Shown here one piece after another: positions 1-16,582 of a DNA stretch of 17,300 nucleotides (positions are counted from its first letter, which is position 1; each line of letters begins with the position of its first letter). A program made the translations under genes and the position numbers. This stretch comes from a virus. Taxonomy: Duplodnaviria; Heunggongvirae; Uroviricota; Caudoviricetes. The notes under the pieces were generated by a model, which was not told the DNA's origin, ran no database searches, and saw only the letters and a list, made by a program, of their open reading frames with translations. The stretch lies in IMG/VR virus record IMGVR_UViG_3300044678_002996, positions 1 through 17,300 of that record. The stretch is one strand, 5' to 3'.

Positions 1-43
1 TATCAGATACGTGACACTTAACACAGCTTGTTATTTTAGCCAT
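1..43 (-). CDS. 5' fragment of a gene running off the left edge (MAKITSCVKCHVSD..., CxxC)
   Basis: ATG at 43-41 overlaps the TAA of the upstream gene (TAATG). The frame is open to the window edge. Not in the ORF track. Confidence 0.55.
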   Translation of the reverse strand, partial: MAKITSCVKCHVSD

Positions 44-270
44 TATGACTCCATAGAGGCTTTACATTGATAATATTCTTTTGCCATTGGGTGCCTGTAC
101 ATAAACACAAGATACGCCCCTCGGTCCTCACACAGGCCGAGCCTCAACATTTCTTTAAGGCAGGCTGATACCTCCTCTGCTGAGTATTTGGGCAAATCCT
201 TAATTATAGACGCTTCACACGCCCCTGTGTCAATAACGCAAACAATGTCATGTACTAATTCTTTGTCCAT
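43..270 (-). CDS. Hypothetical protein, possible winged helix-turn-helix
   Basis: 75 aa, TAATG-coupled at both ends. S-AEEVSACLKEMLRLGLC-EDRGAYL resembles a wHTH recognition helix plus wing (pattern only). Confidence 0.7.
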   Translation of the reverse strand: MDKELVHDIVCVIDTGACEASIIKDLPKYSAEEVSACLKEMLRLGLCEDRGAYLVFMYRHPMAKEYYQCKASMES

Positions 271-554
271 TATTTAATCCTATTCTTAGTAGTTAGGCTC
301 TCTGTTATAGATACCATATTCGACACTTCTCCGTCCTCAAAAGGGAAGATAGACCCATTTATCTCATATGTTATTGTGGATTTTAGCGCCCCAATTCTTC
401 TAACGCAGACGAATGAATTTCCTTCAAAGAAAAATTTTGTATTATCTTCATCTGGCACTTCAAAGATAAATTCAACGACGTTATTTACGTGGGCCACATC
501 AAACACGTACATTGCGTCCGTAATCGTTATAAATGACAAGGTATGATCGGACAT
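270..554 (-). CDS. Hypothetical beta-rich protein
   Basis: 94 aa, in-operon orientation, stop overlaps the next ATG (TAATG at 268-272). Confidence 0.7.
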   Translation of the reverse strand: MSDHTLSFITITDAMYVFDVAHVNNVVEFIFEVPDEDNTKFFFEGNSFVCVRRIGALKSTITYEINGSIFPFEDGEVSNMVSITESLTTKNRIK

Positions 555-784
555 CTTAGTCTTTCTATTTTGAGTATGTCGTGCCTGATGAAATCCAATA
601 TCTTTCGCTTGTCGTCGTCTGACATCTTGTCCAAGGACACGATTAGTAGGCAGTAGAGATCCTTATTCAGGACGCTCTTGCACCAAAGCTCATTATCTTC
701 TTCTAGCGTGTTTTCTCGTGGGCCACGCCCACCGTAGTGGACGTATAGCTCATCGCCCTTAATTACCGATATTGGGTTGTCCAT
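527..784 (-). CDS. Hypothetical protein
   Basis: 85 aa, fills the gap between neighbours with 26-28 nt overlaps. Start uncertain. Confidence 0.55.
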   Translation of the reverse strand: MDNPISVIKGDELYVHYGGRGPRENTLEEDNELWCKSVLNKDLYCLLIVSLDKMSDDDKRKILDFIRHDILKIERLRCPIIPCHL

Positions 785-1163
785 AGTCTATCACCGCAAA
801 CACGTTGGTGCGTGTAAGGTCTTTGCTGTAAATTTGAAAATACTCTAGGTTGTAGCTCTTGAATCGCTTTTCGCAATATTGCGCGAATTCACCCATATCC
901 ATTTGCCTATCTGCTTTTCTAAGCATAATGTACTGCTTCTCTGTTATATGGCCTTTATCGTCAAGATAAAAGCACATACAATCTCCACTCTTAAGTTGGA
1001 CGAACTTTTTGTTACCAATATTAGTGTGAGAATCTTTTAGATAGACAACCGTATATGATATAAATTGAGAGCGTTCGACATTTTTCTCTGCGGCGACCAA
1101 GCCGATTGTCGACCCAGCCACCATCGCTCCGGCTGCAAGCCGTAAGAAGTTTCTTCGTAACAT
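759..1163 (-). CDS. Protein with twin-arginine (Tat) signal peptide, unknown function
   Basis: N-terminus MLRRNFLR-LAAGAMVAGSTIGLV-AA|EK matches the (S/T)RRxFLK consensus plus a moderately hydrophobic h-region and a small-residue cleavage region. Start fixed by TAATG overlap at 1161-1165. Confidence 0.75.
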   Translation of the reverse strand: MLRRNFLRLAAGAMVAGSTIGLVAAEKNVERSQFISYTVVYLKDSHTNIGNKKFVQLKSGDCMCFYLDDKGHITEKQYIMLRKADRQMDMGEFAQYCEKRFKSYNLEYFQIYSKDLTRTNVFAVIDYGQPNIGN

Positions 1164-1621
1164 TATCGCCCTTTCGTATAGGCCAAATTGCTGAATATCT
1201 TAACCATGTAGTCTACCTTATCTACCACCCCGTCCATGGAGTCTATAACTGCCCTAAGCTTTACCATTTCCGTTTGCATCTTCTCGATGTTGGAATGCTC
1301 TGCCGCCGCAGACGCTGTGATCAAGTCCTTGCCCAGAAACTCGTTATAGGAGTGGTAGACCTTAATTAGGGCTCTGTTGAATAGCATTGAGTTGGCATCA
1401 TAGAAGCTCTTAAGCAGGTTAATTCTCTTGTGAATGGAGATAGAGTACCTCGTAAGAATATACTGGGCCGCTATGCAGTCTTCCTTGGACATCGCCCGCA
1501 ATTCATCTTCTGGTAAGTTGAGGTAGTACTCATAGTCCGTATCTACGTGGTCGACCTTAGCGACCCCAATCATTGTGTCATTTTCGGCGATTACTTGTTC
1601 AATCTCTTTAGTTAGTGTCAT
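1163..1621 (-). CDS. Alpha-helical protein, possible UvsY-like recombination mediator
   Basis: Start moved to ATG 1621 (ATGA overlap with upstream stop, AGAGG upstream), giving 152 aa. Helical/coiled-coil pattern and size are similar to UvsY and it lies close to UvsX. The CDS is secure; the function is inference. Confidence 0.5.
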   Translation of the reverse strand: MTLTKEIEQVIAENDTMIGVAKVDHVDTDYEYYLNLPEDELRAMSKEDCIAAQYILTRYSISIHKRINLLKSFYDANSMLFNRALIKVYHSYNEFLGKDLITASAAAEHSNIEKMQTEMVKLRAVIDSMDGVVDKVDYMVKIFSNLAYTKGR

Positions 1622-2016
1622 TGTACCTCTTTGATTATATTGGGCCAATCGTCTACCTTGTCAAAAGGTAATTCGATGAATATGATGTCGTTGAGTTCGC
1701 ACCAGTCTTTTTTCTTCTGGTCGCGTAGCTGTGATTTCTTGAACCCAGCCTTAGTCTTGTGGAATCGCTTCACAAACTTATAGTGCTGTTCACCGTGTAC
1801 TTCAATTAGGATCGACAGATCCGGAATGAAAAAATCAGCTATTAGACCAGTGCCCAATAGCTGTACTTCTTCGTAGATGGTTGAGAATGGAAACCGTGAT
1901 TTCAGTAGCTTTCTGGCGGACAAATGCAATCCACTAGGGGAGCTAGAATCCTTACAAATCTTCTTAAAGTTGAAGATATGTTCCTTGCCATCAAAATCAA
2001 TAAACCTAATGGACAT
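1618..2016 (-). CDS. PD-(D/E)XK endonuclease, Vsr/DUF559-like
   Basis: Motifs EE...ADFF...IEVHGEQH...RDQKKKDWCELNDIIFIEL typical of Vsr/DUF559-type nucleases. Confidence 0.8.
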   Translation of the reverse strand: MSIRFIDFDGKEHIFNFKKICKDSSSPSGLHLSARKLLKSRFPFSTIYEEVQLLGTGLIADFFIPDLSILIEVHGEQHYKFVKRFHKTKAGFKKSQLRDQKKKDWCELNDIIFIELPFDKVDDWPNIIKEVQ

Positions 2017-2179
2017 TTTCTTCCAATCGATCCATTACTCTGCGAAATACATTGGGGCACTTCGCGAAGTCATCCCAAGTAAGATTAAGAATTTCTTCCA
2101 TTTCTTCTTCAGATAAAACTCGCCCCATAATCAATGACTTAAGGCATTCCTTAAATTGTGGTTTTGTCCATGTACTCAT
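2006..2179 (-). CDS. Hypothetical protein (57 aa)
   Basis: ATG at 2179 preceded by GGAG-AATAAT. The ORF-track start at 2191 is a TTG overlapping this RBS. Confidence 0.65.
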   Translation of the reverse strand: MSTWTKPQFKECLKSLIMGRVLSEEEMEEILNLTWDDFAKCPNVFRRVMDRLEENVH

Positions 2180-2180
2180 A

Positions 2181-2660
2181 TTATTCTCCAAATACTTCTT
2201 TTACTGTTTTTAGCTTACTGATCTCAAGGCTCCACATATCTACCTTGCACACAAATGGGCCGTCCCTCGTACCGATTGGAACAAAGGTTGCCTCTTCGAA
2301 AAAGTCGCTCTTAAGCGCCGCCCCTAATTCCCACGCCTTCTTAAGATCCTTTTGAATCCTATAGAAGACGTAGGCGTCACTTCCGTGCTTTTTCTGGTAA
2401 TCAGAAACGGAAGCGGTATAATTAGGAAGAGGAGTATCCTTACAGCTTTTAGCTTTTACATCCACTTTTAGCGACTTATAAAGAACATCATAATGCTTTG
2501 TGTTCTTAAGTTCGCCCGCATATTTATGGAGGAAAAGCTCCTCTGCGAGGATACCGTACAATTTCCCATTTGTAGTGAAAGAGTAGATGTTAGTTTTTTG
2601 GATATCCGCCCGAGCCGCAGCCCTAGCTAAGATATCCTTATCTATTTCTACTTCTATCAT
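2181..2660 (-). CDS. PD-(D/E)XK restriction-endonuclease-like protein
   Basis: GILAEELF helix, YD...DVK catalytic pattern, DAYVF and AWELG segments characteristic of phage REase-fold nucleases. ATGA-coupled to UvsX. Confidence 0.7.
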   Translation of the reverse strand: MIEVEIDKDILARAAARADIQKTNIYSFTTNGKLYGILAEELFLHKYAGELKNTKHYDVLYKSLKVDVKAKSCKDTPLPNYTASVSDYQKKHGSDAYVFYRIQKDLKKAWELGAALKSDFFEEATFVPIGTRDGPFVCKVDMWSLEISKLKTVKEVFGE

Positions 2661-3751
2661 GCTACACTTTCCTCTAGTTCTGGGGGCACGAATTCAAAGC
2701 TTACGCCGTATGTATCGCTATAATGATTTTCTATCAGCTTTTGTAGATACTCTCTGTTTTCGCTAATAATTTCAATAGCGTTGTCCGCGCCCTGCACTTT
2801 CTTATCGATTTGGTCTGTTATGAATGTATACCAAGCTCCACCTCTAACAAGTAGCCCAATCTCTTCTAGAATTGGAAGTGCTTCTTTCGCCCACCACACA
2901 CCTTCACCGAACATGAAGTAATTGAGTATTTTCTTATCATTTTCTTTTGAGACATACGGGGCAAGTAATTTATTGTAGGGTAAATCCCACCGAGCTAATT
3001 GGCCAGCTAGTTCATCTTCGTCTTTAGCCATAGCGATACTTTCGCCGTTTAGATCAAGTTGTCTGTGCCGTGATTCAAGTACGATGTCTGCGTCATATTC
3101 AATACCATTACCACCCTTTGGCACTATTTTACCCATACCCATTGGGGAAGTGTCGACCATCATATGTTGAATGCCGACTAGAACACACCTATTCACTCGC
3201 AACAAGTTTCCGACCTTCTTACAAAAGTCTTCATTTAGCTTAGGGCCCATGTCTCTTCTGTCTGAACGAACGTTTGGGTCGTCAAGTGTATCTTGGCCGA
3301 CAATTCTTGAGAAAGAGTCAATAACAAACAAAGCTCCAGCATATTCTGGATTCTTCATCAGAGCTATAACTTCGCGGTAGATCTCTTCTCCGCTTAGAAT
3401 CTTTCCCTCTTTCGAACGTATCATGATGAAGTTAGGATTCTTAATGTCGAACCCTCTAACTTGAAAGTATTTGTACGCGTTAAGTCTGCATTCTGCGTCT
3501 ACAAAAACCACTTTTCTGCCTTGCTCCAATGCATTTTGTACAATTTGCATAGCAAGGCTTGTCTTGCCAACCTTTGGGCGAGATCTGATTAAGACGAATG
3601 ACCCTTCTGGAATTCCTCCGCCGAGTCTAAAGTCAATAGAGGGACTAGTGGGAATTACAGAGAGGTTAACGCACTGTTGCATTGCCTCTTCTGCTGTTGT
3701 AAAGATATTGTTGTCTGTTACTTTTTCTTTGGTTGCTTTTTTCTTAGCCAT
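2657..3751 (-). CDS. uvsX: RecA/UvsX-family recombinase
   Basis: LGGGIPEG, Walker A variant SRPKVGKTS, DAE catalytic Glu, Walker B FVIDS, PKGGNGIEYDAD, C-terminal GAWY; 364 aa. Confidence 0.93.
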   Translation of the reverse strand: MAKKKATKEKVTDNNIFTTAEEAMQQCVNLSVIPTSPSIDFRLGGGIPEGSFVLIRSRPKVGKTSLAMQIVQNALEQGRKVVFVDAECRLNAYKYFQVRGFDIKNPNFIMIRSKEGKILSGEEIYREVIALMKNPEYAGALFVIDSFSRIVGQDTLDDPNVRSDRRDMGPKLNEDFCKKVGNLLRVNRCVLVGIQHMMVDTSPMGMGKIVPKGGNGIEYDADIVLESRHRQLDLNGESIAMAKDEDELAGQLARWDLPYNKLLAPYVSKENDKKILNYFMFGEGVWWAKEALPILEEIGLLVRGGAWYTFITDQIDKKVQGADNAIEIISENREYLQKLIENHYSDTYGVSFEFVPPELEESVA

Positions 3752-3753
3752 TT

Positions 3754-4116
3754 TTACTCATCTAGTAGTGAGGGCTTTTTACCCTCTAGTTTACGGAACA
3801 ATGGTATTTCGGGGTCTATCTTTTCGACCACCTCTTGTTTTTTATCAGCTAATGCAACCCTCTTAAGACGCGACGCTTCCAGCTCAAACATATCGGGCAG
3901 CTTTTTAGCCGCCAATGAGAAGCACCACGTTTCCCTATTTATAACATTCGTTACAGCATCTTCGCCGTAAGTCCTTATGAACTTCGCCCCAAGCCTCATC
4001 TGCATTTGATATTTTGGTTTATACTCAGGAAGATTCCAAAATTTCGCAGGAAGCGTGACACTTTTCTTAAGATACTCTCGACGAATCATCTCTTCCGCTA
4101 TTCTGGTGATGTTCAA
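3754..4116 (-). CDS. Hypothetical protein (LPxKFWN motif) upstream of UvsX
   Basis: 120 aa from TTG at 4116 (alternative ATG 9 codons later). Gaps of 1-2 nt to both neighbours. Confidence 0.75.
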   Translation of the reverse strand: MNITRIAEEMIRREYLKKSVTLPAKFWNLPEYKPKYQMQMRLGAKFIRTYGEDAVTNVINRETWCFSLAAKKLPDMFELEASRLKRVALADKKQEVVEKIDPEIPLFRKLEGKKPSLLDE

Positions 4117-4117
4117 T

Positions 4118-4411
4118 TTAGTCTTTCTTTTGGTTTTTTCTACGGAAAATATGCGGGGCGTTTAGATTGTTGTTGGTAGTCTTTTTGGGGACATATTCCG
4201 ACATTGCTGTTGTAAGAGTCGCCCCAATCGTTTCTCCATTAGCTTTCAACCTAGCTGGCTCTTTAGCACGTTCTGCCCGCGCGGCTTTAATAAATTCCGC
4301 CGCTACTAGTTGGTCTAACCCAATCTCTTCAGAGATCTCTAGGGAGTTCTTATCCAGATTGGCTAGAATATACGCTTCGTCAGCTTTGTTTAGTTTTGTT
4401 CGTTTTTTCAT
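4118..4411 (-). CDS. Hypothetical protein with possible N-terminal HTH
   Basis: LNKADEAYILAN-LDKNSLEISEEIGLDQLVAAEFIK has an HTH-like pattern, followed by a basic low-complexity tail. Confidence 0.65.
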   Translation of the reverse strand: MKKRTKLNKADEAYILANLDKNSLEISEEIGLDQLVAAEFIKAARAERAKEPARLKANGETIGATLTTAMSEYVPKKTTNNNLNAPHIFRRKNQKKD

Positions 4412-4414
4412 TTT

Positions 4415-4618
4415 TTACCTTTTATGACATTCTATCATATCTTCGTCTACAAATTCGAAATAGTAATCGTCTGTACCGAATAGATTTGGATAACCTATGA
4501 ACTGGATTTCATTAAGGTGCCCACAAACACACTTGACCTTTAGGGTCATTAGGTCACCGTCTGTGTCTCTAGAAAAGGCGCAAATAGCTTTACACGCTTC
4601 GCACGTTATTGGTTGCAT
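4415..4618 (-). CDS. Small zinc-ribbon-like protein
   Basis: 67 aa, CEAC...CVCGH. Confidence 0.7.
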   Translation of the reverse strand: MQPITCEACKAICAFSRDTDGDLMTLKVKCVCGHLNEIQFIGYPNLFGTDDYYFEFVDEDMIECHKR

Positions 4619-4824
4619 TGTAATATCCTATCCATTGTTTGTTTCAGGGAATCGACGCATTCTTGATAAGTTTTCCCGCTTACTTCGAGTGTCTTATGCT
4701 TAAGGCCGCTTTCTTTTAATTGGGCTCGGTGGACACAATGTCCGCTTAATTCCCCAGTAGCGTCTACCGGGTAAATTGAAAATGAAATGTTTACGATAGC
4801 CTTATAGGGCCGATCATGATCCAT
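4606..4824 (-). CDS. Hypothetical protein
   Basis: 72 aa, TAATG-coupled start. Confidence 0.7.
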   Translation of the reverse strand: MDHDRPYKAIVNISFSIYPVDATGELSGHCVHRAQLKESGLKHKTLEVSGKTYQECVDSLKQTMDRILQCNQ

Positions 4825-5021
4825 TATCTATCCTTTCTGTGAACTAATTCAAATTCTTGAACTACATATTTCTTGGGCGATTTTTGACGAAGACTCGCCC
4901 TAGCTTTATTGGCATTTGACACATGGGTAAATAAACGGGCCTTATAAAGATGTGTAGTCCACTTAAACTTAGGAGTTAAGAAGTTTCCATTATCAGGATC
5001 TTGTACGGCCCATATATTCAT
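4824..5021 (-). CDS. Hypothetical basic protein
   Basis: 65 aa, TAATG-coupled at both ends. Confidence 0.7.
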   Translation of the reverse strand: MNIWAVQDPDNGNFLTPKFKWTTHLYKARLFTHVSNANKARASLRQKSPKKYVVQEFELVHRKDR

Positions 5022-5344
5022 TATAGTATTCCTCGTTCGATGTATCTCTTCTTCTGTTCTGGCGTAGCATTTGCTAGCTTTCTAACGTGGGTCTGTTTGG
5101 CCAATTTCTTTTCGGTATTTTCGCCCATCACTTTTTCACGCTCGTACTTATTTCTCTTATTGTTTTGCTCCATTAATTTTCCAATAGTACGCGGGCTCCC
5201 ATCTTTTGCTATTATAGCTGCTGATAGTAATCTTTCTATTGGTGATTTACAAACTGGACATTTTTTATATACCTCCTCGTGATTTTGAATAAATTCTATT
5301 TCTCCACATTTTTCGCACAAATATTCTTTTGTTACGTTTGCCAT
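5021..5344 (-). CDS. FmdB-like zinc-ribbon protein with basic helical C-terminus
   Basis: YLCEKCG...KCPVCK...IERLLS pattern of FmdB-type ribbons. AAGGAG RBS 5 nt upstream. Confidence 0.8.
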   Translation of the reverse strand: MANVTKEYLCEKCGEIEFIQNHEEVYKKCPVCKSPIERLLSAAIIAKDGSPRTIGKLMEQNNKRNKYEREKVMGENTEKKLAKQTHVRKLANATPEQKKRYIERGIL

Positions 5345-5457
5345 AATAGCTCCTTGTTATTTTTGTTATTTTTGTCAATAAAAGTTAAAAACTTTATGAA
5401 AATAGTGTAATATATAATAGGCGGGGTTTCGCCCTTTAAGTATGAATCGAGACAATA
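5345..5457. promoter_or_regulatory. Divergent AT-rich intergenic region: RBS of the zinc-ribbon gene, 9-bp tandem repeat, TATAAT -10-like box for the HNH gene
   Basis: AAGGAG on minus strand at 5355-5350; TTGTTATTT x2 (5354-5371) plus a partial third copy; TATAAT at 5413-5418 on plus strand with no canonical -35. The only sizeable non-coding gap in the window. Confidence 0.5.
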
Positions 5458-6354
5458 ATGAAAACATGTTGTAAATGTAAAAACGAAAGAGATTTTGAGT
5501 GTTTTGTAAAAAATAGTAGCTCAAAAGACGGGCGTTCTGGCCGGTGTAAACTATGTGACGCTATTTACAGAGAAAAAAATAAGGAACGCTCTAGTGTTTT
5601 AAGCAAACAATATAGGCTAAACAATAAAGAAAAGTCTAGTGAATATCACAAAGACTATGCCAAAACGCATAAAGATTGCATAAAAAAATATCAAAAAGAA
5701 TACGCTCAAAAGAACAAAGAAAAAATTAAAGATTATCAAAAAAAATACAGAGATGAAAATAGAGACACGATCAACGGGCAGATCAAGGAGTATTCTATAA
5801 AAAACAAAAATAAAATCAAGGAATACAAAACGCAATATTATTTGAAAAACAAAGCCCGTACGAAAGAAAAGCAAAGGGAGTATTATTTAAAAAACAAAGA
5901 AAATATCGAAAATAAAAGTAAAATATACAGAGTGATAAATCAAGGTAAGATTAGAAGTCGCCGGAAAAATTATCTTGAATCTAACCCTGATGCCAAGCTA
6001 AGCAAAGCACTTAGATGTAGGATTAGAATGGCACTCAAAGTAAGAAATTGTAAAAAATCAGATTCTACGTATAATTTATTAGGGTGTTCTAAAAAATTCT
6101 TTCAAGACTATATAGTCTCAAAATTCACTAAAGGTATGACCCTAGAGAATAATTCTGTAGATGGATGGCACCTCGACCATATTGTCCCATGCGCGTCTTT
6201 TGATTTAAGTGACCCAGATCAGCAAAAATTGTGTTTTCATTATACAAATTATCAACCACTCTGGGCCACTAAAGAAATCGCTATGAGGCACGGTGAAAAC
6301 AGTAACTATATAGGCAATTTAGAAAAGGGCAGTCGTATGTTTTTACAACAATAG
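5458..6354 (+). CDS. Free-standing HNH homing-endonuclease-like protein
   Basis: N-terminal CxxC...CxxC finger, long K/Y/N repeat region, C-terminal LLGCS...GWHLDHIVPCASFDL...CFHYTNYQPLWA...NLEKG nuclease domain. Only gene on the + strand, strongly A-rich. Confidence 0.88.
   Translation: MKTCCKCKNERDFECFVKNSSSKDGRSGRCKLCDAIYREKNKERSSVLSKQYRLNNKEKSSEYHKDYAKTHKDCIKKYQKEYAQKNKEKIKDYQKKYRDENRDTINGQIKEYSIKNKNKIKEYKTQYYLKNKARTKEKQREYYLKNKENIENKSKIYRVINQGKIRSRRKNYLESNPDAKLSKALRCRIRMALKVRNCKKSDSTYNLLGCSKKFFQDYIVSKFTKGMTLENNSVDGWHLDHIVPCASFDLSDPDQQKLCFHYTNYQPLWATKEIAMRHGENSNYIGNLEKGSRMFLQQ
5581..5985 (+). repeat. Nine degenerate 15-aa (45-nt) tandem repeats in the HNH protein
   Basis: KERSSVLSKQYRLNN/KEKSSEYHKDYAKTH/KDCIKKYQKEYAQKN/KEKIKDYQKKYRDEN/RDTINGQIKEYSIKN/KNKIKEYKTQYYLKN/KARTKEKQREYYLKN/KENIENKSKIYRVIN/QGKIRSRRKNYLESN, with Tyr at position 11 in all nine and Asn at 15 in eight. 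Confidence 0.85.
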
Positions 6355-6358
6355 CCAT
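6281..6358 (-). pseudogene. Relict 5' end of the zinc-ribbon gene (MAIVVKTYDC..., stops after 25 codons)
   Basis: ATG overlaps the MazG-like gene stop (TAATG 6360-6356). The first 10 codons (6358-6329) match the N-terminus of 5021..5344 at 6/10 aa. Confidence 0.55.
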
Positions 6359-6798
6359 TATGATTTTGCTTTTTCTATTAGGTCTTTAAGTTCCACTGGT
6401 TTGTATCCCGGTGGTTTTAACATCTTGCCGTCTTCACGCCACACAGCGCCCGGCCCAACCTTTGTTAGATTATTCTGATCAACCCGCTCAAGGGCTTCTT
6501 CAAAAACATATTGCAAACCACAAGAAATCAGTGTCCCATTCGTTACGACGGCTAAATCACACGCTCCGTCTAGCACCTTTTCTGGGCTATAGTTTTCTGC
6601 CCCAGCATCAATGAATTTGCCAAGTACGAAATCTACCCCAAGTGCTTCAATGGTTTCGAGCGCTTCTTCGTAAATTAGCTTCGCCCGCAGAATTCTCTCT
6701 TCTGGTGTAGGGACTCTTAGAGATTTTGCAACAGTTTGTTTTGCCCCGAGCATTAGCCCTTCGATAGCCCAAATGTGTTCTTCTAGTGAGTATGTCAT
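6358..6798 (-). CDS. MazG-like / PRA-PH family nucleoside triphosphate pyrophosphohydrolase (DR2231-like, possible dUTPase)
   Basis: LIYEEALET, LDGACDL, NNLTK and REDGKMLKP motifs. Confidence 0.85.
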   Translation of the reverse strand: MTYSLEEHIWAIEGLMLGAKQTVAKSLRVPTPEERILRAKLIYEEALETIEALGVDFVLGKFIDAGAENYSPEKVLDGACDLAVVTNGTLISCGLQYVFEEALERVDQNNLTKVGPGAVWREDGKMLKPPGYKPVELKDLIEKAKS

Positions 6799-6995
6799 TT
6801 TAGCTTAGTGTATTCCTTAATTAAACTATTAACCTTTTCGCCAAACACATCGCTGGTTTGGTCTACTCGCAATAACAAAATAGACTGAATAAACTTTTCA
6901 AATCCATTATCCATTCTTTGGTTAACTTGTAGTTTGATTTCAGTTACTACTTCATCCAGCAATTCTTTCTTTTTGGTTTGAATTTTTTCACTCAT
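6795..6995 (-). CDS. Hypothetical helical protein
   Basis: 66 aa, ATGA-coupled at both ends. Confidence 0.7.
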   Translation of the reverse strand: MSEKIQTKKKELLDEVVTEIKLQVNQRMDNGFEKFIQSILLLRVDQTSDVFGEKVNSLIKEYTKLK

Positions 6996-7408
6996 TTTGC
7001 AACATACCTCGTCCCGTCAATAATTAGCGATTTAATGGTTCTATGGTCTACTTGGCGGATGCGGTCAGACTGCTTCTTATCCAAGTCCTCTACCTGAGAT
7101 CGCCCGTCTGTCGTCTCAGAGTCTTTACACAATCTACCACGCAGAGTGCGAAGTTTGCCGTCCTTCTTAACAAAGACGACGGTAAAAGGGGTGTCTCCAG
7201 CAGAGATAAGCTTCTCAACAATTTCAGTGCGGTTCATATTATATGAAACACTGAACGCGTCAGATGACTTAAATGCGGTCCTGATACCAGTGCCTTTGAT
7301 CTTAAACTTTTTCTCAGAGTCAAGATCCATAGCTAGGATGGTGTCCCCATCATCTTCCAAAACTTTAGCATATTTAGTGAACGCAACAATTTCATAAACT
7401 TCACTCAT
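6992..7408 (-). CDS. SH3-like / WYL-like beta-barrel protein
   Basis: Start moved to ATG 7408 (GGAG upstream), giving 138 aa. C-terminal FTVVFVKKDGKLRTLRG...RQVDHRTIKSLIIDG resembles phage WYL-like SH3 folds. Confidence 0.6.
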   Translation of the reverse strand: MSEVYEIVAFTKYAKVLEDDGDTILAMDLDSEKKFKIKGTGIRTAFKSSDAFSVSYNMNRTEIVEKLISAGDTPFTVVFVKKDGKLRTLRGRLCKDSETTDGRSQVEDLDKKQSDRIRQVDHRTIKSLIIDGTRYVAK

Positions 7409-7562
7409 CTTTATCTCCATTTTCTTCTCGAAAAATTTCACAAGCGTAACTGTAACCTTCCCAATTATCCACTCCAGCCCCCTGAAGTGCCTCTAGGAAT
7501 AGGGAATCTTCTAAGAGAGACTCGTACTCTTCTTTACTTATTACAACAGTTTCTTCGTCCAT
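7401..7562 (-). CDS. Small acidic phage protein with GVDNWEGY motif (53 aa)
   Basis: ATG at 7562 preceded by GAGG. VVISKEEYESL...LEALQGAGVDNWEGY is a pattern recalled from diverse phage hypothetical proteins. Confidence 0.75.
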   Translation of the reverse strand: MDEETVVISKEEYESLLEDSLFLEALQGAGVDNWEGYSYACEIFREENGDKDE

Positions 7563-7569
7563 TTTGCCC

Positions 7570-7965
7570 TCAAAACTTATAGGTTTTCTTGGCCGGAGGG
7601 GCCCCTGCGACCCCTTTAAAATCCGCGCCCACAATCAATTTTTCCTTAGCCCCCTTGGGGAGAGCGTACGCCCCGCCCCCAAACTCAATGATTTTTTCAA
7701 CATAATCATCAAATCTCTTCATGGCGTCCTTCATAGCATCGCCATTGTACTTCTTGCCGAACTTATTGGTTTTGACGTTATCACAACCCCTTATATCATC
7801 CCAGTAAACTGGGATTTCTTGGTAAGGCTTATTAGTTTCTTTGCAGAATCGTTTTACTAGAGCGTGAGAGACAGACACTATCTCGGTACACTCTAGGGCT
7901 GACAATTGCCTGTGAAGAAAACCGTAGTCGTCAAAACCCCGCCCAACACTTACTCCGAGTATCAT
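7570..7965 (-). CDS. Degenerate YspA/DUF2493-like SLOG-fold protein
   Basis: MILGVSVGRGFDDY...EIVS...YWDD...KFGKKYN follows the DUF2493 outline but lacks the GGAxGAD and AGxxRN motifs. Confidence 0.6.
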   Translation of the reverse strand: MILGVSVGRGFDDYGFLHRQLSALECTEIVSVSHALVKRFCKETNKPYQEIPVYWDDIRGCDNVKTNKFGKKYNGDAMKDAMKRFDDYVEKIIEFGGGAYALPKGAKEKLIVGADFKGVAGAPPAKKTYKF

Positions 7966-8198
7966 GTCTTCCCTTCTAAAAAGGCTATAAGCTCTTCAGA
8001 GCAGGAAACACATACATGATATGCTTTGTAAGAATCGTAATAATTGATAAACACTCCGTCGTGTGCGAGTGGATAGTTAGTCGCGTTTGTTCGTGAGGAA
8101 AGAGGAACATCTGTCCTACTAATGCGAAACATACCTTCGACGGGAATAATTGTTTTTTTACACTTGTCACACGTACATACAATTGTTGTTTCTATCAT
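7962..8198 (-). CDS. Small CxxC...CxxC zinc-binding protein
   Basis: CDKC...CVSC-SEELIAFL; ATGA-coupled at both ends. Confidence 0.75.
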   Translation of the reverse strand: MIETTIVCTCDKCKKTIIPVEGMFRISRTDVPLSSRTNATNYPLAHDGVFINYYDSYKAYHVCVSCSEELIAFLEGKT

Positions 8199-8482
8199 TT
8201 AGACGCCTCGTATAGAGAACAAGTTCCCTTTATATCCACAGTATGGGCGGATTCCCAAGCTCGCCACTCGGCAAGCTGTTTTGTATAGGTATCCCCATCG
8301 TAATAGTCAAAGGGTTCATTAAGGGCATCGCCCGAACGCGGACGGTCTTTAGACACATTACAATATAAGACAGGTAGACCAACACCTGTTAGGAAATCTT
8401 GGGGGATGTAGCAGTGTTTGCAGCTTATACATCCCTTGTGGGCCATCGTCACTTCGCCGTCTGTCAGTGTATAATCTTTCAT
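8195..8482 (-). CDS. Cys-containing hypothetical protein
   Basis: CISCKHC...C...C; ATGA-coupled at both ends. Confidence 0.72.
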   Translation of the reverse strand: MKDYTLTDGEVTMAHKGCISCKHCYIPQDFLTGVGLPVLYCNVSKDRPRSGDALNEPFDYYDGDTYTKQLAEWRAWESAHTVDIKGTCSLYEASK

Positions 8483-9210
8483 CGCCCGCCCTTGTAATTA
8501 AGTTGTTTGAGGATCTTTCCGATAAGTGGGTGACGAAGGATATCCTTTTCGTCCATACAGACCATACCGCACAGGTCTTCTCTCGGATGAAGTTTATCTA
8601 TAAGGTATTCAAGGCCACTCTCGCCCCGCAGGTCTTGTTGGTCAGTGTCGCCCTCAAATACCATCTTACAGTTTTCGCCCAAGCGTGTGATCGCCATGAC
8701 AGCCTGTGGGATGGTCATATTTTGAGCCTCGGTGATCAGAACGTAACAGTTCTTGTAGGTAAAACCCCTCATGAGTTCAATAGCTTGTAACTCGATGGTC
8801 CGGTTTTCAAGAAGGCGTTCAAGTTCTTTACGAGATCCCAACAGGTCTTCTAAGTTGGATAGAATAGGGGCAAAGTATGGCACGAGTTTCTCATAGAGCG
8901 TGCCTTTAATGAATGGGAAGTCTCTGTCTGACGTGGCGACCATAGGGCGAGTTACATAGATCTTAGCCCTCTCTCTTGTGAAGAATACATCCTCTAGGGC
9001 AGTATTTAGGGCCACCAAGCTTTTACCAGTCCCAGACGGGCCAGAGCAGATTGTGATGTCCTGAGTCTTGATTGAGTTTACATATTCCTTTTGGTTTGTG
9101 GTCTTAGGTTTGATAAAGCGATACTGTACAGGCTTTGTGGACGCTGCCTCATTTTGTTTTGGTGGAACTGCGTCTGCCTTTTTTGTAGTTCTGCTTCTAT
9201 GTCGTGTCAT
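8479..9210 (-). CDS. phoH: PhoH-like protein
   Basis: PKTTNQ, GPSGTGKS Walker A, TRP, EK..PY, EAQN, TRLGE, GD..QQDL, RHPLI. Walker B and RGRT motifs are altered. Confidence 0.92.
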   Translation of the reverse strand: MTRHRSRTTKKADAVPPKQNEAASTKPVQYRFIKPKTTNQKEYVNSIKTQDITICSGPSGTGKSLVALNTALEDVFFTRERAKIYVTRPMVATSDRDFPFIKGTLYEKLVPYFAPILSNLEDLLGSRKELERLLENRTIELQAIELMRGFTYKNCYVLITEAQNMTIPQAVMAITRLGENCKMVFEGDTDQQDLRGESGLEYLIDKLHPREDLCGMVCMDEKDILRHPLIGKILKQLNYKGGR

Positions 9211-9800
9211 ACGATGCTTTCTTTGGGCAAATCTGCCCTAAATTTATTATTCATCTCTGAGAAATTGATCTCTGACGATAGCCACGCTGGTGGGTATCGT
9301 CTAGTATAAACCATCATATTTTTACCATTTTTATCAACCCGCTTACCGTGCTTGTAATAATCGCGATAAGCTTCAATCGTGTCGTCTTGCTTGTATTCGT
9401 CAGGCATACATTGGGGCGGCTTGGTGATATACCAACTACCCAATTTGATTAACTTAGTCTCATCTAGCTCTGGAATATCTGGAATATGCAGATTAAGCCA
9501 ACCAAATAAGCCAGTCATACTATGAACTTTTCCGCTATATCTGTGAGAATATTCCATCATAAGTGCTTGTGTGTATACAGTTAAATACACATAATTTTCT
9601 TTATGCGAACGGCACCATATTGCAGAAGGATGATTTTGGTGTGTTAACTTGACCAGTTTCTGACGAACATTATCAATTGGGTGGAGGTGATGTGCTGAAG
9701 ATAGAAGCTGTATGGACTCTAAAATCATTTTGACAACGTGTTTGTCACAAAGTGACTGGGCAGACCCATATGCGTTAGCGTCTAAAAAGAAAATGTTCAT
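9207..9800 (-). CDS. Pyrimidine-dimer DNA glycosylase (DenV/endonuclease V)-like protein
   Basis: MNIFFLD, DKHVVKMILES.QLLS, TH.NHP..IW, PQCMPDEYK, AYR.YY motifs. Confidence 0.82.
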   Translation of the reverse strand: MNIFFLDANAYGSAQSLCDKHVVKMILESIQLLSSAHHLHPIDNVRQKLVKLTHQNHPSAIWCRSHKENYVYLTVYTQALMMEYSHRYSGKVHSMTGLFGWLNLHIPDIPELDETKLIKLGSWYITKPPQCMPDEYKQDDTIEAYRDYYKHGKRVDKNGKNMMVYTRRYPPAWLSSEINFSEMNNKFRADLPKESIV

Positions 9801-10051
9801 CAGTTAGGTTTTTCTATCTTAAATAGAGGAGAGATATTTATTCCCACCTTATCCTTAAAGTATCTCATTGTGCAGGAAGATCGCCCATAATTACGCTCTT
9901 TTGGGAAATTTACATACCCATCTCCATTTTCACGATCTATTCTAATAATCATCCATTCATCACGTTGAAAATAAATTTGGTGCATTGGCTCTGCTCCGTC
10001 GTATATCTGCACCCAATAGTATCCTGAATCTGCTTCGTCTAGTGGTATCAT
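9800..10051 (-). CDS. Hypothetical protein
   Basis: 83 aa, TGATG overlap downstream, GAGG upstream. Confidence 0.7.
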   Translation of the reverse strand: MIPLDEADSGYYWVQIYDGAEPMHQIYFQRDEWMIIRIDRENGDGYVNFPKERNYGRSSCTMRYFKDKVGINISPLFKIEKPN

Positions 10052-10052
10052 G

Positions 10053-10742
10053 TTATCCTCTTATTACAAAACCAGTTTGATCTTTTTTAGCTTTACCTTT
10101 TGCGGTAAGGCCCCCGATTTGCCCCTTAGGGTCTAGAAAACGTAAATCTGTTTCGTCAGCACTAAATACTGTGTACCCATCATAAGTTTCGGGCACGGTC
10201 TGGAAGACTGCGGCCACTGTATGATCGTTATCGAGTACAGTTTTGCAGAACTTCCAATTAGACTCAGACCTGCTGAATGTGAGATAGTAGTTGGGCGGGC
10301 ATTTGCCATCCATATACTTTCTCATAATCTTCTCTTCTTTGGTGTAATTATACATAATCACATCAGAGAATTCTTCAAATATCTGGGGCACTTTGCTTGG
10401 CCAGTAAATATCTGAAGTTCCGTTAAGCCTAACGCAAGGAATCATACCCTTAGACTTTGCCTGATTAACAAGGGCATGAATATCTCGCTTAAGATCCCTG
10501 ATAAATACATCCGGGTCTTCAAACAATTCCTTTGTCTTTCTAATTCGGGCGGCTTCAACGGAGTGCATTACACCTCTCCCCGCCGTAAACAAACAAGATG
10601 CCCGACATCCTTCCGTGGATGAAGGGCAAGTTTGATAGCCCGAAGTTTTAGCCGGAGCTAGGTAGAGTACCCCTGTTAGATACTCCCCTAGTTTGTCTCC
10701 TTTTACAGTCTTAGCATTAGCCCCAACATTTAAGAGTTTCAT
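10053..10742 (-). CDS. GP88-like protein with C-x6-C-x3-C motif (predicted radical-SAM-like Fe-S enzyme)
   Basis: N.K..K, L.LAPA, CPSSTEGCRASCL..AGRG, RLNGTSD, YTK, Y.LTFSRSE, D.TDLRFLD, L.AKG.AKKD.TGFV. Confidence 0.75.
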   Translation of the reverse strand: MKLLNVGANAKTVKGDKLGEYLTGVLYLAPAKTSGYQTCPSSTEGCRASCLFTAGRGVMHSVEAARIRKTKELFEDPDVFIRDLKRDIHALVNQAKSKGMIPCVRLNGTSDIYWPSKVPQIFEEFSDVIMYNYTKEEKIMRKYMDGKCPPNYYLTFSRSESNWKFCKTVLDNDHTVAAVFQTVPETYDGYTVFSADETDLRFLDPKGQIGGLTAKGKAKKDQTGFVIRG

Positions 10743-11695
10743 TCTTCATATTCCTCTAGGTCTTCGACCAAAACCATTTCTAATTCTTGACTCCAAACGT
10801 GTCGCACGACTACTGTATCATAGCCTTCAGTGTCACTTAGAACTTCGACATAAGAGTCTTGATAAAGAGCCATATCTCCGCGTCTAAACGAACTGACTTC
10901 TGAGATAGAATCATAATCGTTATCAATATCTTCGTCGCAAGTACATTCATTATAACATTCGTCATATGATGTGTTCTTGAGAATATCGCAATAATCCTTC
11001 ACAACTTCGTATTCGCACACTCTGATCTTTGTGGAATTATGATCATAAGGTACACACACTACATTCTTAGGGTTTACCTTAACGATAATACACTTGTCCC
11101 CGTGCCCCGAATACCATCCATTTGGGCCGGAGTAAGCCAACCCGCCCACGTGCAATCCTTGGGCACAATGGTGACGAGCGTCGTCGGAAATCTTATTGCG
11201 GTCCATCTTAATGACAGACCCGATAGTGTTAGAGATGGTGCCCGAGAACTTATCCTTATAATCCTTACGAACGCACTTATAGGCCAATAGGTGGCCGTCT
11301 TCGGTAAGGGGTAGCTTATGGGTTTCAATAAATCTCCACAACTGCTCGATTGAACTAGCAGAAGGATTTTCCATAAGATTCTCTAGGAACTTAACAATAG
11401 GCTTAATGTCAAGCCCAGCCGTGCGGTATTCGTAGATAGCGTCAACAACAGAGTTATGAATCAACTCTCCATTGAAGAATACCCCAAGGTCCGTCACCTC
11501 AATCTTGCCCCCAGAGCTAGAGGATACTGACTTAGCCACGCAGGCCAAATTTTCGATTTCTTCAAATCTTACGCTTGAGCTGTTGAGGGCCGCTACGATT
11601 TTTTTGAAGTTAAGGTGGTCTTTGTTAATCTCCACAGTTTTAGTTTCATGGAAAATGCAAAGTGAGTTACTCGTCAAAACATAATTCAAAGACAT
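10739..11695 (-). CDS. rIIB: rIIB-like protein
   Basis: FLENLMENPS, LPLTEDGHLLAYK.VR.DY.D..SGT..N..G...M.R, C..GLH, VKVNP..VV.VP.D....K.RVCEYEV; directly downstream of rIIA. Confidence 0.92.
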   Translation of the reverse strand: MSLNYVLTSNSLCIFHETKTVEINKDHLNFKKIVAALNSSSVRFEEIENLACVAKSVSSSSGGKIEVTDLGVFFNGELIHNSVVDAIYEYRTAGLDIKPIVKFLENLMENPSASSIEQLWRFIETHKLPLTEDGHLLAYKCVRKDYKDKFSGTISNTIGSVIKMDRNKISDDARHHCAQGLHVGGLAYSGPNGWYSGHGDKCIIVKVNPKNVVCVPYDHNSTKIRVCEYEVVKDYCDILKNTSYDECYNECTCDEDIDNDYDSISEVSSFRRGDMALYQDSYVEVLSDTEGYDTVVVRHVWSQELEMVLVEDLEEYEE

Positions 11696-13700
11696 TCTGG
11701 TCTCCCTTTTCTATATACTCTTTTAGTGGTTTTTTGAATTTCGCATCTTTAAGATGGTATTGATTTATTATGCTTAGTAATGGATAATTTGTTTCAACTG
11801 TTTTATCAATTGACTTTCTAATTTTATCCAATAACTTAGAGGATTTTTGGGCCAAATCTAATGGTTTGAATCCTAGTGAACACATAGATGAATACAATTG
11901 ATTCATATATTTTATTTTTACGGTGTCTGACTTTCTATAAAACTTGGCGAGGCCATTAGCATAATCTTTTCTTTCCTTAGCTAAGAACTCATGAAGGTTG
12001 TTTCTCTGCAGTTCTTTGTAAATCCAATCCGCCCAATATTGTTCAATGTGCCCATTAACCTCTTTCTCTAATACGTCGAAAAGATAAATTCCGTTGGGCG
12101 GTTTTTCAAATTCCCAGTCCAGAACGATAACATCTTTTTCTAGAGGTGTAGAAGCGTAATATACATCACTAAGCGTGTATGTCATTTTGTTGTGTGACAC
12201 ACTCTTATTCTTCATTATGACGTAATAACCATCATATTTCTCTAGATCTGGCTTGAACTTTTCTGCTATGTTGATAAAAGTTGGGTTGTAGGTTGTGCCC
12301 TTTCTGAGTTTGTAGATGTCTTTTTTCTCTTTAACTACTCCCGCTTTTCGGGGGGCTCGCTTCTTTACTGGAAGACTAGACGCTTTTATTTTGAAAATAT
12401 CTCCAAATTTGTCGGCAAATTCCTTAGTTTTCTCGGTAGATAGTTCTACACACACTGTGCAGTATGCGTGAGGGACATTGTCGGCTATTCGCGTAAGTCC
12501 GCCAGCCGGAATATCATCTATGATAAACTGGTGATCTGGGTAGTTTGTGAGATATGAACGATAATTAAATCCGTCCGAATCATAAGGCACAAAAGACTTC
12601 TTATTCTTAAGTTTAAGAGTGAAGTTCTTCTTAAGCTGCTCTTTGAGGTATTCCATGGAGAGATTGTGACCTTTCCACTTCATAGGCTTCAGCTTGATAA
12701 TATCCATTCGTGAGTAAATCGTTAGGGCATCCCTATAGTTGTCAGAGGCGTCTATTTGCTTTTGCACCTCTGCTTCAATATTAGCTTCAATATGACGTAA
12801 AACCGACTTCGCGTAAGCGACTGTTTTCGCGTTCATCTTCAATTTTTCGCGAGACGCTTGTACTGACACAGACCCCAGTGGGGCTTCTACGATAACGTAA
12901 CGATTACTTAGGATATTCGAACGCTCGACAAGATTATAGTCTATGTCGTAGGCGACGCCGCCCATTACGATCATATTCTTAAGTAACTTATTATTATAGC
13001 CATTATTCTTGTATGTATTGGCTATGATAAAAATTTTGTCGTCTATTTTGATACTCAAAGAGTCTACTTTGGATAGGGTGTCCTTGAAGTACTCAATTTT
13101 CAGGCCGCACTCAAAAAGCTCTGATTTAATAAAAGAAAGAGAGTACTTAATATCTTCACAAAACAGGGTAATTTCTTCTCTCTTGATGGAGTAGCTAACT
13201 TCTAGGCCGTCATGTTGATCTGTCCGCTCTGAATTAATAGCGGCGACTTGTGGCACACCGTCTTCGCCCCCAAAGATTGAGTAAAGTGTAACGGTGCCGT
13301 CCTTATAGGATTTAACCGTAAATTGCTCTACATACGCAAGTGGAGATAGGGCCCCTATTCCGAAGAACCCTATCTCGTTTTCTATTTCTTTTTTAGATGA
13401 AGAGCCTAAAGATGTGTATAGATCTCTGATTTCAGCCGAAGTTAAACCCGGCCCGAAATCTCTTACAGAGAACACTGGGTTTAGGGCCGACGGATATTGA
13501 ATTCTAATGGGCACTTGGGAATTAGTGCGGGTGTTAGCGTCTAGGGCGTTTGAGATAATTTCTCTAATACCAGCCATTCTTGGCATGGAATAAACAGACT
13601 CTGTTAAGATACTGAAAATAGCCCCAGTGTTTTCTGACACTTTGGCTGGCATATATGTTACGTTTGATTGTACTTTTGCGCGGGGGCTATTATCTATCAT
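11667..13700 (-). CDS. rIIA: rIIA-like protein with N-terminal GHKL ATPase
   Basis: IREIISNALDA (N box), VRDFGPGL (G1), S.K....IGFFGIG..SP.AY (G2), GLEVS, MGGVAY.I, G.V....SREKL; 677 aa; overlaps rIIB. Confidence 0.92.
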   Translation of the reverse strand: MIDNSPRAKVQSNVTYMPAKVSENTGAIFSILTESVYSMPRMAGIREIISNALDANTRTNSQVPIRIQYPSALNPVFSVRDFGPGLTSAEIRDLYTSLGSSSKKEIENEIGFFGIGALSPLAYVEQFTVKSYKDGTVTLYSIFGGEDGVPQVAAINSERTDQHDGLEVSYSIKREEITLFCEDIKYSLSFIKSELFECGLKIEYFKDTLSKVDSLSIKIDDKIFIIANTYKNNGYNNKLLKNMIVMGGVAYDIDYNLVERSNILSNRYVIVEAPLGSVSVQASREKLKMNAKTVAYAKSVLRHIEANIEAEVQKQIDASDNYRDALTIYSRMDIIKLKPMKWKGHNLSMEYLKEQLKKNFTLKLKNKKSFVPYDSDGFNYRSYLTNYPDHQFIIDDIPAGGLTRIADNVPHAYCTVCVELSTEKTKEFADKFGDIFKIKASSLPVKKRAPRKAGVVKEKKDIYKLRKGTTYNPTFINIAEKFKPDLEKYDGYYVIMKNKSVSHNKMTYTLSDVYYASTPLEKDVIVLDWEFEKPPNGIYLFDVLEKEVNGHIEQYWADWIYKELQRNNLHEFLAKERKDYANGLAKFYRKSDTVKIKYMNQLYSSMCSLGFKPLDLAQKSSKLLDKIRKSIDKTVETNYPLLSIINQYHLKDAKFKKPLKEYIEKGDQNVFELCFDE

Positions 13701-13909
13701 TATTTACCTCTTAGTGTGAAATCCTTAAAACCATCTTTTGTATTGCAAACGTATGCACTACTGTGGAGCCTAGTGCGTGGAATAACTGAGTCAGGAACTG
13801 AATAGGTCTCATAAACGTTTACTCTGAAACATTCGCCCCCAACAGCTTTTATTTTTGGGACACAATTATCTGGGAAACCTAGCAAATCTTTAGCTTCTTT
13901 TGGAGTCAT
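13700..13909 (-). CDS. Hypothetical protein
   Basis: 69 aa, TAATG-coupled at both ends. Confidence 0.72.
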   Translation of the reverse strand: MTPKEAKDLLGFPDNCVPKIKAVGGECFRVNVYETYSVPDSVIPRTRLHSSAYVCNTKDGFKDFTLRGK

Positions 13910-15000
13910 TATTCGTAGTTCCTTATTGCTACCATTACTGGAAATCTTGGGACGCCGTCTTCTGTTATTTCAAAGTATCTTATGGTGGCCATCATCCCGA
14001 TATAACTGTCAGCATTTGCTAAGTAGAGGGCCCGCTCTTCTTCTGTTCCTTTCGGGACAGCTTCAAAAGTTTTCTTGTCTTTAGTGACCAAAGTAAATGT
14101 TGGTATATTTTTGAACTTGCCTTTCCCAGTTTTGTAGCCAGTGATTTCAAATTCGTCATCAATAAATTCCTTAAGTTTGAGAAGATCGTACGATCTCTTA
14201 TTTGGTTGATAGAGGGACGCCAAATTGCGAATCATCGTGCCCTCTTGCCCAGCCTTAACATTTTCTTTATGCCATCTGAAAAGGTCGTCCTCAGTTTTTA
14301 TTATTTTCCACGGAACTATTTTTGAATTTTTGAGGCCGACTAACAAAAGGTCCAAGGCCACAACTCGTTCGTGGTAGGTGCTGTCGTCGACAATGTCGAA
14401 TGCGTAGAAGAAGATTTTATACATTCTCTCGTCCTTCGATTTTGTCTTGCGGACAACTGAAACAATATCATTGAAGGAAAGTTCATTACTATAGAGTTCG
14501 CCGTCAAGAGTTATATCGGTGTTTAGGGTTATTAGCTCGTCAGTTATATGGTCAAGGTTTACTATCTCTGTCCCGGTGCGACTGGTGCATTTTGCAACGC
14601 CGTCCTTAATGTCGATAATAACTCTAATGCCGTCTATCTTAACGCTGGCGATTGCGGGCCACTGAATCTTGTGGGCGTAGTCAGAATACTTGTGGGCCAA
14701 CATTGGGAGGGCTGGGGGCTTCTGGGCGACAGCGGTGGAGTAGCCTTTACGCTCAATTTGCTTTGTGTAAAGGGCTTCTGCCTCTGCCCTACATTGTTCT
14801 GTAGCAGTTGTTTCATTAGCTCGCCCAATATTTTTACCTTCAGCGACTTGGACTTCTGTCTTTTGCATCTGCCCATTTAGTTGCCCGTGTAACACGGAAT
14901 AGTAGGGAATATCGTCCTCGTCGAATCCGACGTAGACTTCCCACGTACGAGTTTTACCCTTAGAATCTATCTTATAGAGAGTGCTATTGATTTTTATCAT
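13909..15000 (-). CDS. lig: ATP-dependent DNA ligase
   Basis: PMLA, motif I KIDGIR, SRTG, III LDGELY, IIIa FYAFDI, IV EGTMIR, V LLKLKEF, OB-fold ending PRFP. Confidence 0.96.
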   Translation of the reverse strand: MIKINSTLYKIDSKGKTRTWEVYVGFDEDDIPYYSVLHGQLNGQMQKTEVQVAEGKNIGRANETTATEQCRAEAEALYTKQIERKGYSTAVAQKPPALPMLAHKYSDYAHKIQWPAIASVKIDGIRVIIDIKDGVAKCTSRTGTEIVNLDHITDELITLNTDITLDGELYSNELSFNDIVSVVRKTKSKDERMYKIFFYAFDIVDDSTYHERVVALDLLLVGLKNSKIVPWKIIKTEDDLFRWHKENVKAGQEGTMIRNLASLYQPNKRSYDLLKLKEFIDDEFEITGYKTGKGKFKNIPTFTLVTKDKKTFEAVPKGTEEERALYLANADSYIGMMATIRYFEITEDGVPRFPVMVAIRNYE

Positions 15001-16449: not shown

Positions 16450-16573
16450 GCTTTTCTTCTTTCTTCTTAAGGTCGTCGACCAGTTGAAGATACATACTGT
16501 ACTCTTCGTCGGACAGATAGTCACCTTGATACAGCTTCATCAAGAGTTCCGAAAGCTTTAACTTAGTCTTCAT
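16430..16573 (-). CDS. 47-aa helical protein missed by the ORF track (MKTKLKLSELLMKLYQGDYLSDEEYSMYLQLVDDLKKKEEKHEKARR)
   Basis: Strong RBS TAAGGAGG 4 nt upstream of ATG 16573; TGA at 16432-16430. Confidence 0.75.
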   Translation of the reverse strand: MKTKLKLSELLMKLYQGDYLSDEEYSMYLQLVDDLKKKEEKHEKARR

Positions 16574-16582
16574 AATTCCTCC

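Follow-up and report, generated by a model that had tools for sequence, protein, structure and literature searches.

Genomic context of the locus

The DNA analyzed here (17,300 nt; the window) corresponds to positions 1–17,300 of an 81.3-kb IMG/VR record (CheckV, 47% complete; GC, 41.8%) in which nearly all genes lie on the minus strand. Within the window are rIIA, rIIB, an ATP-dependent DNA ligase, and PhoH; ribonucleotide reductase, RNA ligase, and NAMPT are encoded elsewhere in the record. The source is a large, uncultured T4-like phage.

The gene under study occupies positions 759..1163 on the minus strand and consists of 134 codons plus a stop. Its 134-aa product, P0001, begins with MLRRNFLRLAAGAMVAGSTIGLVAAEK, and the minus-strand translation gives the N terminus as MLRRNFLR-LAAGAMVAGSTIGLVAA-EK. 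The TAA stop of the upstream ORF and the ATG of the P0001 gene overlap at base 1163 (TAATG). None of the 12 in-frame codons 5′ of this ATG is an ATG, GTG, or TTG; therefore, the ATG at 1163 is the first possible start. An AAAGGG stretch resembling a Shine-Dalgarno sequence (1169..1174, minus strand) is located 5–10 nt 5′ of the ATG, within the end of the upstream gene, and relatives carry AAAGGG or GGAAGGGG at equal spacing. Stop/start coupling is also found in relatives, as TAATG in four contigs (L002, L005, L012, and L013), TGATG in L006, and GTGA in L014. An earlier note on this DNA had considered the start to be fixed by TAATG coupling, and the overlap, the lack of an earlier start codon, and the recurrence of the arrangement in relatives all bear this out. 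Compared with three relatives, the gene has a dN/dS ratio of 0.09–0.22, which indicates that it is translated and under purifying selection. On the basis of the ORF translation, homologs, and dN/dS, we regard 759..1163 as a real gene.

The upstream gene (1163..1621, minus strand) encodes 152 aa from its ATG, although in the ORF list it starts farther upstream, at a TTG (1648). It had been described as UvsY-like, but this annotation could not be upheld: the UvsY profile PF11056 had no match at E values up to 10 anywhere in the record, and the protein itself (P0002) had no Pfam or PHROG match. The P0002 model is all helical (pLDDT 80.6), but the fold match is not specific; T4 UvsY (4zwt_D; PDB: 4ZWT) appeared at Foldseek rank 44 (E 0.85, TM 0.33/0.36), and the VIA list was filled by generic helical bundles with Z scores of 9–11. 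Separately, this protein is unusually constrained for one that belongs to no family, being 97–99% identical among relatives whose recombinases differ by 7–13% (dS 0.6–1.3).

A UvsX/RecA-like recombinase is encoded three genes upstream (2657..3751, minus strand; PF00154, 39.2 bits; phrog_97, E 8.4e-32). The description of the locus as a recombination operon was, however, an overstatement, because the UvsX-like gene is part of a long, tightly packed block of co-oriented genes, of which many are small. A promoter and terminator scan of positions 1..5500 gave counts no higher than those for shuffled sequences and thus did not delimit an operon. The same block contains a 132-aa homing-endonuclease-like ORF (1618..2016, minus strand) that matches only the C-terminal part of homing/HNH PHROGs (phrog_9084, E 7.4e-17). 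This ORF is 98% conserved in relatives with a dN/dS of 0.03, and from its sequence it resembles a nuclease domain that has been domesticated or truncated more than it does a mobile element.

On the other side, an 85-aa downstream gene (527..784, minus strand) overlaps the 3′ end of the P0001 gene by 26 nt, and an overlap of this type recurs in L002, L005, and L007. No family and no signal-like N terminus was found for the 85-aa product. Small genes further downstream are variable, as the P0001 gene is: a 94-aa gene (window 270–554, minus strand) is 62% identical in L012, and the 75-aa slot next to it (window 43–270, minus strand) holds an unrelated gene in L005 (14.5% identity).

An N-terminal twin-arginine motif

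Codons 3–8 of the P0001 gene (1140..1157, minus strand) encode RRNFLR, a twin-arginine motif of the form R-R-x-F-L-K/R that is supported by conservation and profile matches. It is followed by the h-region LAAGAMVAGSTIGLVAA (codons 9–25; 1089..1139, minus strand), which has 17 uncharged residues ending in V-A-A. The mean Kyte-Doolittle hydropathy of this region is 1.79, and 11 of its 17 residues are Gly, Ala, Ser, or Thr. By sequence, the terminal V-A-A is a possible signal peptidase I site.

When all six frames of the 81.3-kb record were searched for RR-x-F-[LIV]-[KRQ] with 13 or more uncharged residues directly after it, the only occurrence was the N terminus of P0001, and the pattern was absent from all of 2000 residue-shuffled proteomes. 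A looser pattern had an expectation of 0.038 per shuffled proteome.

The arginine pair of P0001 is at residues 3–4, which leaves an n-region just two residues long. A start of this kind is known from E. coli CueO, which begins MQRRDFLK and also has its arginine pair at residues 3–4. From the arginines onward, P0001 matches the bacterial consensus R-R-x-F-L-K. The full Tat consensus is S/T-R-R-x-F-L-K, or more generally Z-R-R-x-Φ-Φ, where Z is polar or charged (2026 review, PMC13673990), whereas the residue before the arginine pair is hydrophobic in this family: Leu2 in the window clade, P0022, and L007, and Ile2 in P0016 and P0021. This substitution lowers the claim of P0001 to membership among Tat signals, but it appears compatible with Tat recognition.

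At the C-terminal end of the leader, the window clade has small residues ahead of a Glu (V-A-A or V-A-G). The AxA-like end is less clear in the more distant homologs, which have G-V-S-T-K (P0016 and P0021) or I-G-A-T-P (P0022). A basic "Sec-avoidance" residue in the c-region is absent from the window clade, whereas P0016 and P0021 have a Lys. The absence of a lipobox from P0001, also proposed in the earlier note, was confirmed; its first Cys is residue 62. P0016 and P0022 have a Cys at residue 9, but this precedes the h-region and is not part of a lipobox.

The motif is retained in all complete homologs

Relatives of P0001 were sought by word-indexed search of 5.8 billion proteins, exhaustive phmmer of 1.8 billion cluster representatives, and profile search. 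Twelve were found in total, all of them metagenomic and from related lake-phage contigs; the family amounts to 12 proteins in one phage clade. No match was detected among GenBank phages by tblastn or megablast, and pattern scans of IMG/VR and JGI metagenome contigs produced no relative. Scans against Pfam, PHROGs, NCBIfam, and PADLOC assigned no family to P0001, in line with the earlier observation that the part of the protein after the leader has no recognizable motif.

Wherever the neighboring genes of a relative could be read, the gene slot is identical. In close relatives, the order is UvsX-like, 159 aa, 57 aa, 132 aa, 152 aa, the P0001 gene, and 83–85 aa, followed further on by ThyX, DnaB, and primase; on the short contigs of distant lineages, the P0001-type gene is two genes upstream of ThyX. 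By identity to P0001, the sequences form four lineages: the window clade (77–99%), P0016/P0021 (33–35%), P0022 (27%), and the L007 form.

The earlier note had proposed conservation of the arginine pair as a check, and an RRxFL-type segment was present in every complete homolog N terminus across the four lineages sampled. The motif M-[LI]-R-R-[NST]-F-[LIV]-[KRQ] is kept down to 27% identity, although this rests on four lineages only; variants are MIRRNFLK and MIRRTFIK (P0016 and P0021) and MLRRNFVK (P0022). The codons that encode it vary between lineages in a synonymous or conservative way (Arg3, CGA or AGA; Phe6, TTC or TTT; position 7, TTA, CTA, or ATA). The h-region has diverged almost wholly between lineages, whereas the RR motif has been retained, and all lineages share a positively charged start, 15–18 uncharged residues, and then a polar stretch. 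Two 120-aa entries, P0015 and P0008, seem to be leaderless, but neither counts against conservation of the leader. The start of P0015 had been placed at an internal ATG; the contig itself encodes MLRRNFLQ in the same frame, again with the TAATG overlap. The contig that carries P0008 is 1.1 kb long.

Tat profile scores and comparison with other leaders of the phage

Two curated Tat profiles were used to score the leaders, and in P0001 both matched from residue 3, covering RRNFLR. P0001 scored 13.9 bits against PF10518 (TAT_signal; curated cut-off 22.7) and 14.1 bits against TIGR01409 (curated cut-off 16.7). The P0022 leader passed TIGR01409 with 23.1 bits (cut-off 16.7); P0016, P0021, and P0013 had no TIGR01409 match. 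When the first 40 residues of four homologs were searched, PF10518 was the top family in all four (12.8–14.2 bits, below the gathering score of 22.7). Across all six frames of the 81.3-kb record, the sole PF10518 match was the P0001 N terminus (14 bits, E 0.0088). The language-model neighbors of residues 1–45 were mostly Tat-signal clusters, including TAT_signal, periplasmic [Fe] hydrogenase small subunit, and Rieske Tat signal; with scores of 0.84–0.87, these neighbors serve as leads only.

All ORFs of the record with an N-terminal hydrophobic run were then listed and compared with the P0001 leader. Most of the other signal or membrane-anchor N termini have Lys-type n-regions (MKK, MKN, MKR, or MKFVK), and their cores have mean hydropathies of approximately 1.9–3.35, all above the 1.79 of P0001. 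One of them has a lipobox (LVSGC). P0001 is the only one of these ORFs with an RR n-region directly before the core, and among the cores that of P0001 has the lowest hydropathy and the highest Gly/Ala content. The contrast between an RR leader with a core of low hydropathy and Lys leaders with more hydrophobic cores indicates that two leader styles exist in one phage, and thus in one host.

The mature domain has a confident predicted fold

Structure prediction and a structural search of the mature part had been suggested earlier, and both were carried out; they produced a confident fold with no credible relative in the PDB, AFDB clusters, ESM Atlas, or BFVD. An AlphaFold2 model based on an 11-sequence alignment covers the mature domain (codons 26–134; 762..1088, minus strand) with pLDDT values of 84–93 over residues 40–125 and a pTM of 0.66. 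The core of the model (residues 37–130) is a beta sheet of seven core strands plus one helix at residues 90–100. The leader was unmodeled or of low confidence, so the model is uninformative about export.

Foldseek against the PDB gave no credible match (best E 0.21), and the best hits in AFDB clusters (E 0.12) and BFVD (E 0.15) were no more convincing. TM scores in the ESM Atlas reached at most 0.41. The wide VIA-align search returned only pieces resembling propeller blades (best Z 3.4, rmsd 3.9 over 61 residues). An hmmsearch of PDB sequences with the family profile produced only noise (best E 0.021), and a language-model search of the mature part gave no usable match. Pfam, PHROGs, Foldseek against the PDB, and VIA-align gave no sign of a muralytic or antiholin family or fold in the mature domain. 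These failed searches prove neither a new fold nor a function.

Weak phmmer matches raised the possibility of kinship to the repeat proteins P0017, P0018, and P0020. This was dropped because the BLAST matches were short hairpin motifs, the Pfam matches of the three proteins were RCC1-like or noise, and the hhalign probability for P0017 was 1.7%.

Two cysteines, Cys62 (codon at 978..980, minus strand) and Cys97 (873..875, minus strand), are invariant in 10/10 aligned sequences. We infer that they form a candidate disulfide, which would fit an extracytoplasmic location.

The leader behaves as a module apart from its cargo

One contig, L007 (Logan, ERR14064761), carries a different mature domain behind a similar leader. 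L007:1–700 was aligned to window positions 527–1172; DNA identity is 77–83% in the leader, 30–57% in the mature domain, and 83–87% in the downstream gene. The identity breaks just past the leader, and the L007 cargo resembles the P0022 allele. A break at this point is what would be expected of a modular protein, and the comparison suggests that residues 1 to approximately 27 form an independent targeting module behind which cargo can be exchanged. As a separate observation, the L007 gene is split by a frameshift near L007 137–152; this was seen in a single contig and may be an assembly error or mark a pseudogene.

The P0001 gene evolves much faster than its neighbors, as judged by its lower identity and higher dN/dS. 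In relatives in which P0001 is 77–84% identical, the upstream 152-aa protein is 97–99% identical, and the dN/dS of the upstream gene is 0.01–0.02 compared with 0.09–0.22 for the P0001 gene. The earlier note raised superinfection exclusion, envelope remodeling, and a TatBC decoy as possible functions. Fast evolution and cargo exchange fit a role at the envelope or in an arms race, but they do no more than fit.

P0001 is probably exported by a Tat-type leader

Taken from sequence and model, the properties above suggest that P0001 is probably a small phage protein exported to the periplasm by a Tat-type route, where it would be released or remain tethered. The earlier note called the leader a near-textbook Tat signal. 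A Tat signal is still the best-supported reading, with the motif kept in four lineages and the sole Tat-profile match of the record at this N terminus. Against it, the window protein scores below both cut-offs and has Leu before the arginine pair. We propose that residues 1 to approximately 25 of the precursor act as the leader, with a short n-region containing RRNFLR, a 17-residue Gly/Ala-rich core, and a V-A-A end, and that residues approximately 26–134 make up a compact domain of a beta sheet and one helix with the two invariant cysteines. Translation would be coupled to that of the upstream gene, in the same long block as the UvsX-like recombinase gene. The mature domain would fold in the cytoplasm before transport, the host TatBC receptor would recognize the RR leader, and the folded domain would cross the inner membrane. 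It would then either be released by signal peptidase I or stay tethered by its leader, and act in the periplasm or on the envelope. A fast-evolving cargo would fit a protein whose envelope partner varies; receptors, incoming phages, and the lysis machinery are examples of such partners.

It is possible, if somewhat unlikely, that P0001 instead leaves the cytoplasm or enters the membrane by the Sec/YidC route, with either an ordinary signal peptide or a weakly hydrophobic SAR-like signal anchor, and that the arginines provide positive-inside charge only. SAR domains are rich in Gly, Ala, Ser, and Thr, and the 11/17 such residues in the P0001 h-region would also suit one. The sub-cut-off profile scores and the hydrophobic residue before the arginine pair point the same way, and so does the invariant Cys pair, which suggests that the chain is exported unfolded and then forms a disulfide; a requirement for a disulfide would be easier to reconcile with Sec than with Tat export. 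The Tat review emphasizes that the export route is not set by the leader sequence by itself and that Sec export can be driven by most Tat leaders (PMC13673990). The known T4-type small periplasmic proteins use Sec-type leaders, T4 RI among them (PMC8385771). However, charge alone leaves unexplained the Phe, the Leu/Ile/Val, and the basic residue or Gln after the arginine pair, all of which are kept despite divergence of the h-region, and Arg-Arg is never changed to Lys among the homologs. Several other signal-like N termini of the phage do use Lys, and all of them have more hydrophobic cores; in addition, the P0022 leader passes the curated TIGR01409 cut-off.

That P0001 is not exported, and that its hydrophobic N terminus has another use inside the cytoplasm or on the inner side of the membrane, is very unlikely. 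Such a location would agree with the placement of the gene among replication and recombination genes, but not with a charged start, 15–18 uncharged residues, and a polar stretch in all lineages, with a leader that behaves as a module apart from the folded domain, or with an invariant Cys pair that fits an oxidizing compartment. Still more improbable, to the point that we give it hardly any weight, is the proposal that P0001 works as a decoy, blocking the host TatBC receptor, with no function as periplasmic cargo: the presence of a Tat-like leader is all that speaks for it, and a jamming peptide would need neither a 100-residue domain that folds well, is conserved by purifying selection, and has invariant cysteines, nor alternative cargo alleles behind the same leader.

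Comparison with known export signals and phage proteins

P0001 resembles bacterial class I Tat signal peptides (TIGR01409 and PF10518) in its N-terminal R-R-x-F-L-K/R, in the moderately hydrophobic, Gly/Ala-rich core of 15–18 uncharged residues found across the family, in the small-x-small V-A-A end of the window clade, and in having a folded, compact passenger. It differs from them in the Leu or Ile before the arginine pair, the two-residue n-region, and the sub-cut-off scores, as well as in being encoded by a phage and carrying a passenger without a cofactor motif or a known family. Tat leaders as such are well known; the unusual points here are the phage origin of the gene and the orphan fold that follows the leader. 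No characterized phage-encoded Tat substrate was found in the open-access literature searched. The 2026 review of Tat transport mentions none (PMC13673990), and a 2026 screen of Klebsiella phages with SignalP 6 reported no phage Tat signals (PMC13412088).

The function of P0001, judged from its sequence features, is likely to be directed at the envelope. T4-type phages encode small periplasmic proteins, among them the antiholin RI (PMC8385771) as well as Spackle (Sp) and Imm, that act on the envelope, incoming phages, or the lysis machinery. Faster evolution, exchange of the cargo, and the rIIA and rIIB genes led us to guess at a role like that of T4 Imm, Sp, or RI in superinfection exclusion, envelope protection, or lysis timing, and by analogy this would be the most reasonable guess. 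The P0001 gene, like those of RI, Sp, and Imm, is located outside the late structural genes, with rIIA and rIIB in the same phage. The T4-type proteins are helical; P0001 showed no sequence or fold similarity to them in searches of Pfam, PHROGs, Foldseek against the PDB, and VIA-align, and their leaders are of the Sec or SAR type. P0001 shares with them a size of approximately 80–130 aa, a putative N-terminal signal, and a small domain that would likewise be periplasmic.

A broader reading, which we consider improbable as a whole, is that in this T4-like lake-phage clade the conserved Tat leader serves as a portable export tag. Behind it, swapped and rapidly diversifying cargo of an unseen fold would be exported folded and would act in the periplasm against competitors or on the envelope, through superinfection exclusion, receptor masking, or lysis timing. 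If true, T4 Imm, Sp, and RI would have a counterpart here that depends on Tat. Superinfection exclusion and lysis timing are under the control of small periplasmic phage proteins, and those characterized have Sec-type leaders; if the P0001 family is Tat exported, it would show that phages route folded effectors through the host Tat system, and it would give researchers a compact orphan fold whose leader is natural and whose cargo can be swapped. Otherwise, the significance is modest, because a Tat-like leader on a phage ORF is unsurprising in itself and the family is tiny.

Host and a prepilin-like protein of the same phage

The phage fragment encodes no TatA-family protein. The earlier note had concluded that the leader implies a Tat-using host; this carries little information because TatA-family genes were present in 13/14 control genomes. 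Recombinase matches by tblastn were to mixed hosts at only 24%–27% identity. Outside the window, a 115-aa ORF (G000:C1:76501-76848, minus strand, which corresponds to L011:6501-6848, minus strand) starts with MMPSPEQLRMTRRGFTLVEVLVVIGITCILIALLVPAL. A scan of genome contigs with this pilin-like protein yielded no relative. It passes the Pfam N_methyl profile (PF07963) with 29.7 bits against a cut-off of 21.2, and by sequence we classify it as a phage-encoded prepilin or pseudopilin-like protein. Its ALLVPAL tail resembles those of pseudopilins of the PVC superphylum and is a possible lead to the host.
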